Below are positions 1 to 4,537 of a stretch of DNA of 5,591 nucleotides, piece after piece; positions within the stretch are counted from its first letter, which is position 1; each line of letters opens with the position of its first letter. The DNA comes from a virus (lineage: Duplodnaviria > Heunggongvirae > Uroviricota > Caudoviricetes), in IMG/VR virus record IMGVR_UViG_2675903394_000001, positions 1 through 5,591 of that record; one strand, written 5' to 3'. The position numbers and the translations under genes are program-made. The notes under the pieces are model-generated. The model saw only the letters and a list, made by a program, of their open reading frames with translations, was not told the DNA's origin and did no database searches.

Positions 1-3410
<3,410 letters not shown>

Positions 3411-3439
<29 letters not shown>

Positions 3440-3917
3440 CCGCAAATTCCTTCATTTTTTCAGCAGATTCAACGCATTTATTAGCTCCCTTCGCAACAAG
3501 CTCTTTCAGATAAGCCAATTGTCTGCCTGTCAACTCAGGGAATTTTCTTTGCATCGAAAGCGGAATACTGTCCAGAACAGATGCCAGTTCTCCGGATAAC
3601 CGGGACAGTGCAAAAACAGAGAAAGCGGTATCAATCACTTTATGCTCTGCAACCTGGTTTTTTAACCGCTGAGCAATAGCCTGTTCTTCCGTCAGATTAA
3701 CCCTGGCCTGAAGTAGCCTTTCCTCAAGGTCATTTTCACCATCTGAAGATTTCTGGTTTTGCTGACGTCGCTCGCGATCTATCTCCAGTACAGTTTTAAC
3801 GTCATAGAAAACCTCTCTCCCCCGGCGCTCAACAGGAGGGACACCCCATTTATCAAATGCCTGTACTGAGATACCGATGGAGGAGGCCATGTCGCTTTTA
3901 TTCAATAAAAAGGCCAC
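3411..3917 (-). CDS. Nu1: Terminase small subunit, Nu1 family but strongly diverged from lambda Nu1
   Basis: The track ORF 3411..3941 (TTG start) translates to ...LNKSDMASSIGISVQAFDKWGVPPVERRGREVFYD...TAFSVFALSRLSGELASVLDSIPLSMQRKFPEL.... This aligns with lambda Nu1 (NKKQLADIFGASIRTIQNWQEQGMPV...TAFCTFVLSRIAGEIASILDGLPLSVQRRFPEL) at roughly 35-40% identity by eye. Position is immediately downstream of cos and the 3' end overlaps the gpA start, as in lambda. Start is uncertain: I favour GTG at 3917-3915, which has GGAGGA 4 nt upstream; alternatives are TTG 3905, ATG 3890 (which would truncate helix 1 of the winged HTH) and the track's TTG 3941. Confidence 0.75.
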
Positions 3918-3947
3918 AGCTCCTCCATAAACCACCGGCAAAAAAGC

Positions 3948-3959
3948 AATACAACAACC
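3948..3959 (+). repeat. cosB repeat copy 3 (R1-like), aatacaacaacc
   Basis: 12-bp motif about 30-40 bp upstream of the candidate small-terminase start codons. Confidence 0.5.
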
Positions 3960-4016
3960 CCGTTTTTTGTAAAACCCTCTGATTTTACATGCTTTTTCGT
4001 ATAAGAAAGCTCATCA

Positions 4017-4028
4017 GGTTGTTGTATT
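4017..4028 (-). repeat. cosB repeat copy 2 (R2-like, inverted), ggttgttgtatt on the plus strand
   Basis: Exact reverse complement of aatacaacaacc (3948-3959); inverted relative to the two flanking copies, like lambda R2. Confidence 0.5.
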
Positions 4029-4072
4029 TGTTTTTCTTTCTTATTACTTATCAAGTAGATATATCAAACGAT

Positions 4073-4084
4073 AAAACAACAACC
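4073..4084 (+). repeat. cosB repeat copy 1 (R3-like), aaaacaacaacc
   Basis: 12-bp motif aWacaacaacc, about 39-50 bp from the cohesive end; 11/12 identical to the copy at 3948-3959. Confidence 0.5.
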
Positions 4085-4110
4085 ACCACCTCAAAAAAAC
4101 TCATAAATAG

Positions 4111-4140
4111 CGAAAACCCGCGAGGTCGCCGCCCCGTAGC
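4111..4140 (-). other. cosN terminase nicking site; 12-nt cohesive end GGGCGGCGACCT on the minus strand = plus 4123-4134
   Basis: Reverse complement of 4099-4140 is GCTACGGGGCGGCGACCTCGCGGGTTTTCGCTATTTATGAGT, which contains the lambda cohesive-end sequence GGGCGGCGACCT and the lambda left-end continuation CGCGGGTTTTCGCTATTTATGA (recognised from memory). Confidence 0.9.
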
Positions 4141-4170
4141 CTGCCGGATCGCCGGAAAGGACCCACAAAA
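4141..4170 (-). other. Right-end flank of cosN, expected to contain cosQ
   Basis: Reverse complement TTTTGTGGGTCCTTTCCGGCGATCCGGCAG closely resembles the lambda right-end terminal sequence (...GGGTCCTTTCCGGTGATCCGACAGGTTACG) as I recall it. I cannot place the exact cosQ bases. Confidence 0.35.
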
Positions 4171-4342
4171 ATGATAATAATTTCATGTACATAATGTTCA
4201 TCACAACGATGTTGTGTACGCCATCAAACCACGACAAACAGTTAATTATGCAGCAGATATCGTATTAATTGATCCGCATCAAGTTAACGTAAAAGCAACT
4301 TCAGACAATACAAATCAGCAACACTGAATATGGGGCAACCTT

Positions 4343-4537
4343 ATGTCATCGAAGAACAGAACCCGAAGAACAACAACCCGCAACATCCGATTTCCAAACC
4401 AGATGATTGAACAAATTAATATTGCTCTTGACCAGAAAGGTTCAGGGAATTTTTCAGCGTGGGTCATTGAATCCTGCCGACGGAGACTAACGTCAGAAAA
4501 GAGAGCATATACATCAATCAAAAGTGATGAAGAATAA
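4343..4537 (+). CDS. Small ribbon-helix-helix (CopG/Arc/MetJ-like) putative DNA-binding protein, 64 aa
   Basis: ATG at 4343 with a GGGG stretch 7 nt upstream, TAA stop at 4535-4537. The protein MSSKNRTRRTTTRNIRFPNQMIEQINIALDQKGSGNFSAWVIESCRRRLTSEKRAYTSIKSDEE has a basic N-terminal arm, a predicted beta strand (RNIRFPNQM) and two helices (IEQINIALDQKG; NFSAWVIESCRRRL), typical of RHH folds. I recall an almost identical ORF in the lambda right-end region carried on cosmid vectors, differing only by conservative substitutions. Confidence 0.6.
   Translation: MSSKNRTRRTTTRNIRFPNQMIEQINIALDQKGSGNFSAWVIESCRRRLTSEKRAYTSIKSDEE

Follow-up and report, generated by a model that had tools for sequence, protein, structure and literature searches.

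Judged from its letters, the region at positions 3942-4098 of the viral DNA analyzed here, a stretch of 5,591 nucleotides referred to as the window, is very likely the cosB of a lambda-like cohesive-end site with the N15/Monarch packaging specificity. Three repeats in this region are almost certainly the small-terminase (TerS) sites R3, R2, and R1 of a lambda-like packaging site. The finding is correct and is not new, since the N15/Monarch kind of cosB and the tripartite architecture with its recognition sequence were published in 2015.

Anatomy of the probable packaging site

The window covered the head-end junction of a lambdoid prophage of the E. coli type, the phage map of which runs along the minus strand, and the same gene order was also annotated by RefSeq in related E. 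coli prophages. The rightmost feature, on the cosQ side, was a gene of the ylcI/ynfO family (DUF3950; 4343-4537, plus strand). The terS gene (3411-3917 with the stop codon included, minus strand) encoded, from a GTG start, a 168-aa small terminase of the Nu1 family with an N15-type recognition helix. Its 3' end was overlapped by terL, the ORF of a gpA-like large terminase (1514-3439, minus strand), for which the start at 3439 was deduced from the 1926-nt length of homologues annotated as phage terminase large subunit; on the phage map, the window ended with gpW and the beginning of the portal gene. About 215 bp of AT-rich non-coding DNA lay between the cohesive end and terS, and the repeat region contained 69% A+T, as compared with 48% for the whole window.

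The window was a mosaic. On its terS-cosB side, an identity of 99.2-99.5% to three genomes ended at position ~4167, and its cosQ/ylcI side matched other prophages. E. coli 2015C-4136CT1 is one strain with a near-identical prophage. When the phage collection was searched with megablast, only the cosN/cosQ side (4101-4348) matched lambda-like phages, in lambda over the cos and right-end region, at 86-88%, and no close relative of the window was found among the sequenced phages. The prophage of the window may be defective.

The cohesive-end sequence of cosN, GGGCGGCGACCT, was located at 4123-4134 on the minus strand. Because the reverse complement of these positions is the lambda cohesive end, bp 1 was set at position 4134, so that cosN occupies bp 1-12. 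The cosQ sequence GGGTCCT was found as an exact 7-mer at 4158-4164 (minus strand; -30 to -24 from bp 1), and it also occurred at -30 in the lambda-type DLP12, in CFT073 phage 4, and in every other cos examined. The spacer CGCGGGTTTTCGCTATTTATGA between cosN and R3 (4101-4122, minus strand; bp 13-34) was identical to bp 13-34 of lambda. Identity to lambda thus extended over the first 34 bp past the nick and was followed by complete divergence.

Beyond this point, the first-pass annotation had described three 12-bp repeats in direct-inverted-direct order, and all of them were recovered at their positions. The candidate TerS site R3, GGTTGTTGTTTT, lay at 4073-4084 on the minus strand (bp 51-62), R2, GGTTGTTGTATT, at 4017-4028 on the plus strand (bp 107-118) and inverted with respect to R3, and R1, again GGTTGTTGTATT, at 3948-3959 on the minus strand (bp 176-187) with the orientation of R3. 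Read on the plus strand, the direct copies were AATACAACAACC (3948-3959, plus) and AAAACAACAACC (4073-4084, plus), and the inverted copy was GGTTGTTGTATT (4017-4028). These offsets, together with the GTG of terS at bp 218, agreed well with the earlier estimates of about 50, 106, and 175 for the repeats and about 217 for terS.

The motif AWACAACAACC occurred exactly three times in the window, at 3949-3959 (plus), 4017-4027 (minus), and 4074-4084 (plus). With up to one mismatch, four matches were found where 0.17 were expected, and none of 200 shuffles reached four. Recurrence of the motif elsewhere in the genome had been named beforehand as one observation that would speak against packaging sites. 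We scanned 40 kb of the prophage L043, whose cos-terS region was 99.3-99.5% identical to the window, and the exact 9-mer core was exclusive to the three cosB sites. All three copies furthermore shared a T-rich 3' flank (GGTTGTTGTWTT..TTT), and the real site may therefore be 17-19 bp long.

The fourth match, GAACAACAACC at 4368-4378 with one mismatch, was considered as a part of cosB and rejected because it encodes Thr-Thr-Thr in the ylcI-family ORF. The ylcI gene of K-12 DLP12 held an exact GGTTGTTGT beside a cosB of the lambda type, which indicates that the fourth copy is a by-product of coding. It lay ~235 bp from cosN, on the cosQ side.

The annotation had also described an AT-rich 44-bp spacer with a partial IHF-like core between R3 and R2. 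Indeed, the spacer (4029-4072) contained 77% A+T and two IHF cores with one mismatch each (4049-4061 and 4062-4074). The first of them, the I1-like core TATCAAGTAGATA (4049-4061, plus strand; bp 74-86), differed by one mismatch from WATCAANNNNTTR and had an A/T-rich tract (4029-4048) on its 5' side. The sequence TATCAANNNNATA was kept in the Escherichia relatives of the complex type and in the island cos2 described below, and the candidate IHF cores of lambda lie at bp 74-86 and 79-91 on the same strand as in the window. Matches to the IHF consensus in the whole window were not above background (7 found, 4.1 expected), and two loci of the survey below, L018 and L019, had a GC-rich R3-R2 spacer with no such IHF-like core. 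A role of IHF at the I1-like core is plausible, and these features are only suggestive of it. In the R2-R1 spacer (3960-4016), comparison with L004, L005, L011, and L012 revealed a conserved ATCA(A/G)A..GGTTTT block, possibly a further bend or an element resembling an IHF site.

The small terminase and its probable recognition sequence

The window TerS matched the Pfam family Phage_Nu1 over residues 6-148 with an E value of 1.5e-21 and 77.1 bits against a cut-off of 30, and it was 47-49% identical to N15 gp1, which was also its best match in the phage collection (48.8%, tblastn). The Pfam match and the N15 alignment settle its membership of the Nu1 family. No solved structure matched TerS by sequence at E <= 0.01. 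The first-pass annotation had proposed a diverged winged-HTH domain, and this was borne out: the N-terminal HTH aligned to lambda gpNu1, and the recognition helix, the boundaries of which were set by alignment to gpNu1 residues 17-24, read ISVQAFDKW where lambda has ASIRTIQNW. The helix ISVQAFDKW was identical in the window TerS and N15 gp1, and GISVQAFDKWGV was common to both.

The likely start of terS is the GTG at 3917, which is preceded by GGAGGAG, whereas the mechanical ORF call starts at the TTG at 3941. The GTG start is supported by the length of the RefSeq homologues (507 nt) and by an ATG at the same place in relatives such as L004. A terS read from the TTG would run into the DNA just inside R1.

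The packaging specificity had been left unassigned to any known phage. This part of the first-pass annotation did not hold, as both an N15-type R sequence and the helix identity with N15 gp1 were found. The GGTTGTTGTTT in R3 of the window (bp 51-61) corresponded to bp 50-60 of N15, displaced by +1 bp; the left end of N15 carried GGTTGTTGTTT at bp 50-60 and, within gene 1, ACTACAACC as an inverted copy at 250-258. In N15, R3 (GAGGTTGTTGTT) was mapped to bp 48-60 by the Feiss laboratory via block and scanning mutagenesis, and the remote inverted copy was named rR2 (PMC4669245, PMC9026076). N15 R3 is needed for efficient packaging, and block mutations in it lower packaging (PMC4669245). The published block mutation m2, at N15 bp 54-59, caused a loss of about 100-fold. 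The N15-specific terminase packages lambda DNA, whereas the lambda terminase does not package N15 DNA (PMC4669245, PMC9026076). A Monarch group was described among E. coli prophages in 2015; it has the order R3-I1-R2-R1 with an IHF site between R3 and R2, R sequences that strongly match R3 of N15, a TerS helix identical to that of N15 TerS, and no rR2 in terS; this description of a tripartite cosB reads as sequence analysis (PMC4669245). No binding or packaging experiment on a tripartite N15-type cosB is reported in PMC4669245 or PMC9026076.

No copy of the motif was found inside terS in the window or L043. The presence of R2 and R1, the position of terS at bp 218, and the lack of rR2 distinguish the site from the simple type of N15. 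The match of the R sequence, the identity of the helix, the three R sites, and the lack of a copy in terS together point to the N15/Monarch specificity.

Relatives of TerS were scanned in one genome per species, giving 33 loci from Escherichia, Pluralibacter, Trabulsiella, Erwinia, Pseudocitrobacter, Pseudomonas, Halomonas/Vreelandella, Aeromonas, Oceanimonas, Marinobacter, and others. All 33 encoded the S[VT]QAFDKW helix. A motif search around other cos sites had been proposed with the first-pass annotation. Exact GGTTGTTGT was present upstream of terS in 30 of the loci, and with one mismatch in 2 more. Wherever an element like the spacer sequence CGCTATTTATGA was found, GGTTGTTGT began 27-29 nt after its start, which places the motif at bp ~50. 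The flanks of the loci (71.7 kb) held a single exact copy of the 9-mer, ~235 bp from cosN on the cosQ side, at the place of the ylcI coding copy of the window and K-12 DLP12. The survey extends the pairing of GGTTGTTGT with SVQAFDKW from Escherichia to Pseudomonas, Halomonas, and Aeromonas. Helix and site were also coupled in their changes: islands with the helix VSATAFDKW carried AATACACCAACC and GGTTGGTGTATT repeats instead, one base having changed together with the helix.

R3 was conserved in all aligned relatives. An inverted copy at the R2 position was found in L002, L004, L005, L006, L010, L011, L012, L016, L018, and L019, with one mismatch in L010 and L019 and exactly in the others. Where present, R2 stood at about bp 106-118 in any genus, at a spacing of ~58 bp from R3, and this fixed position fits a TerS dimer that would bridge R3 and R2 across a bend. 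The position of R1 varied, from bp 176 in the window to a start at 187/188 (187-199) in the common form of E. coli and E. albertii; R1 was absent from L010 and L019, and L018 had its third copy inside terS, at bp 280. An rR2-like inverted copy lay 149-161 nt into terS in 13 of the 33 loci. The N15-type cosB thus came in several architectures (L010, L016, L018, L019, L013-L015, and L020-L042): R3 only, R3 with rR2 in terS (the 13 loci), R3-R2 (Pluralibacter and Pseudocitrobacter), R3-R2 with a copy in terS (L018), and the full R3-R2-R1.

Within Escherichia, including E. albertii, cosBs ~79% identical to that of the window kept R3, the TATCAA core, R2, and R1, while their spacers diverged. The R2-R1 spacer of the window type was 11-12 bp, or about one helical turn, shorter than that of the commoner E. 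coli/E. albertii type. At least 80% of the cosB query was covered in 246 of 5426 complete E. coli genomes, so that ~4.5% of them carried the tripartite form; 23 genomes had the window type (cosB at least 95% identical), and the ~79% type made up most of the 246. E. coli accordingly has at least two tripartite versions, and Monarch could be either. The cosB found here may resemble that of Monarch or belong to a sister subtype, Monarch being known here by its description.

Other readings of the repeats were weighed on the same evidence. R2 and R1, as an inverted repeat, might form an RNA hairpin in the late-transcript leader upstream of terS, for instance to regulate the translation of terS or the stability of the mRNA. 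When folded, the minus-strand RNA of 3905-4045 indeed paired R2 with R1, with an MFE of -36.1 kcal/mol (z = -3.2), and none of 200 shuffles was as stable. However, R3 has the repeat sequence unchanged and finds no partner in the fold, and its distance from cosN was constant in 30 of the 33 loci, most of which were without R2 or R1 in the leader. The arms of R2 and R1 were invariant, so that no compensatory changes supported the pairing, and the inner hairpin of the fold was not kept in the ~79% relatives. In addition, the third copy in L018 lies inside terS, and the second copy in N15 is 200 bp away inside gene 1. The R2 and R1 of lambda are likewise inverted repeats, and yet they are known TerS sites. 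We consider a hairpin function very improbable.

The repeats might instead be occupied by some other protein, for example a transcription factor of the host or the phage, and lie beside cos by coincidence; this could be argued from the report that lambda gpNu1 is a weak binder of its R sites in vitro. This reading is also very improbable given that the motif follows the recognition helix of TerS through distantly related genera and is altered where the helix is altered, that block mutations of N15 R3 lower packaging, and that no promoter-like or terminator-like signal was seen at the repeats; the latter also led us to reject a promoter or terminator reading. Given the A+T content of this intergenic region, the repeats might also be matches that arose by chance or through low complexity. 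Such an origin is effectively refuted by the excess of matches over expectation and shuffles, by the restriction of the motif to cosB across 40 kb, and by the maintenance of the sites while the spacers diverged.

For the repeats as TerS sites, we propose by analogy with lambda and with the genetics of N15 that the lambda mechanism would operate with a different pair of helix and site. The elements follow one another on the phage map as cosQ, cosN, R3, an IHF-type bend site, inverted R2, R1, terS, and terL. The winged-HTH domains of a dimeric TerS would dock on R3 and R2, brought face to face by a bend in the AT-rich spacer that is probably made by IHF. The docked TerS would anchor TerL ~47 bp away, leading to accurate nicking of cosN. 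R3 would be critical, as the TerS site from which TerL is positioned on cosN, and R1 an accessory site that raises efficiency. Specificity would be set by how the GGTTGTTGT(W)T repeat pairs with the recognition helix ISVQAFDKW of TerS. We infer that TerS binds at R2 and R1, that IHF takes part, and that the cos of this prophage is active.

Second cos sites of satellite islands

Partial matches to the cosB led to PICI-type islands of one common layout: genes for capsid and decoration proteins came first, then a cos, a gene for Rpp or TerS, and an inverted second cos. In L006 (E. coli elppa4, NZ_CP083512, 487011-489005, reverse complement), two convergent cos sites flanked a gene for a 146-aa Rpp-like HTH protein: bp 1 of the first cos was at 337 (plus strand), the gene at 438-878 (plus strand), and bp 1 of the second cos at 1107, reading leftwards to ~900. 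This second site was a complete cos of the window type, with cosQ at -30, cosN, R3 at bp 50, the TATCAA core, R2 at bp 109, and R1 at bp 187, and no terS lay behind it. An inverted cos2 of the window type in a PICI-type satellite was found in 46 of the 5426 E. coli genomes.

Other cosB-like repeat sets occupied the cos2 slot in ATCC 25922, O157:H7 E32511, and CFT073. In CFT073 (L044; NC_004431.1, 1385000-1434999), bp 1 of cos1 was at 2559 (plus strand) and that of cos2 at 3309 (minus strand). The cos2 of this island, EcCICFT073, had CATGTCCGGTTTC at bp 50-62 and, in inverted form, at bp 108-119 and 137-148, which are phage-like positions, and the resident helper phage 4 had its cos at 39745 with a different, 21-like repeat set. 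The two cos sites of EcCICFT073 are published; the role of cos2 was left open, and the phage cosB was not identifiable there (PMC6092414, PMC6739421). Our literature search found no account of the role of cos2 later than these two papers. In ATCC 25922 (L008) and O157:H7 E32511 (L009), capsid-gene-bearing islands had bp 1 of a cos at 1021 (minus strand), terS at 334-876 (minus strand), and bp 1 of the second cos at 143 (plus strand). Their terS encoded a complete TerS of the N15 family that had VSATAFDKW as a variant helix, and their own cosB had AATACACCAACC at bp 107-118 and GGTTGGTGTATT at bp 134-145, a natural covariation of helix and site. The repeats of the second cos, which was convergent with the first, were of the CGTTTC type in L008 and of the CAGATCC type in L009.

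Since either the same type of cosB or another one stands in the cos2 slot, cos2 may be a swappable, phage-type cos cassette. We put forward as a tentative and somewhat doubtful proposal that helpers of a second specificity, here N15/Monarch, would package the satellite directly through cos2, and that cos1 would serve the Rpp or TerS of the satellite itself. If true, the cassette might explain the second cos of some PICIs by direct use of N15/Monarch-specific helpers.

The satellite cos2 observation is the part of this work that could open an experiment. As a correctly read case of a published specificity, the cosB of the window changes little, and its use lies in annotating cos sites and in predicting which helper or terminase packages which prophage, cosmid, or satellite. 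Among 50,697 records of the phage collection, no TerS was more than 60% identical to that of the window, so that the tripartite N15-type cos seems to be known only from prophages. As the tripartite form is nevertheless present in ~4.5% of the E. coli genomes, an inducible tripartite phage would be a useful experimental partner for N15.

Comparison with lambda, phage 21, N15, and Monarch

The window shared with lambda the order and orientation of the sites, an identical cosQ, cosN, and bp 1-34, an IHF-like core on the matching strand and in the matching place, and a Nu1-family TerS with a gpA-like TerL. The lambda-like spacing that had been claimed was confirmed for R3 and R2, which lay within 1-2 bp of their counterparts in lambda (R3 at 49/50-65, R2 at 109-124, R1 at 151-166, and the Nu1 start at 191); R1 was 25 bp farther and terS began 27 bp later. 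The claim that the recognition sequence is unlike the lambda R sites was likewise upheld: the R sequence is of the CGTTTCC type in lambda and GGTTGTTGTWT in the window. The TerS helices differ correspondingly between the two, ASIRTIQNW in lambda and ISVQAFDKW in the window, and the proteins were 38% identical overall. In the window, the interval from cosN to terS held no repeats of the CGTTTCC (lambda) or TGTCGG (21-like) type.

Phage 21 and 21-like prophages such as CFT073 phage 4 have a tripartite, lambda-like cos with cosQ and cosN as in the window. In CFT073 phage 4, however, the R repeats are TGTCGG and the N-terminus of TerS is unlike that of the window.

The simple cosB of N15 resembled that of the window in the R sequence, its distance from the cohesive end, the recognition helix, and the lambda-like cosN and cosQ. 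It is without R2, R1, and the IHF site, whereas the window has R2, R1, and an IHF-like core. Gene 1 of N15 starts at bp 89 and contains rR2, whereas terS of the window starts at bp 218 and is without rR2. The cohesive end of N15 differs from that of lambda at bp 9 and 12, while that of the window is identical to lambda's. As for Monarch, every published feature of its cosB had a counterpart in the window, with an IHF-like core where Monarch has its IHF site, the comparison having been made with the published description rather than with a Monarch sequence.
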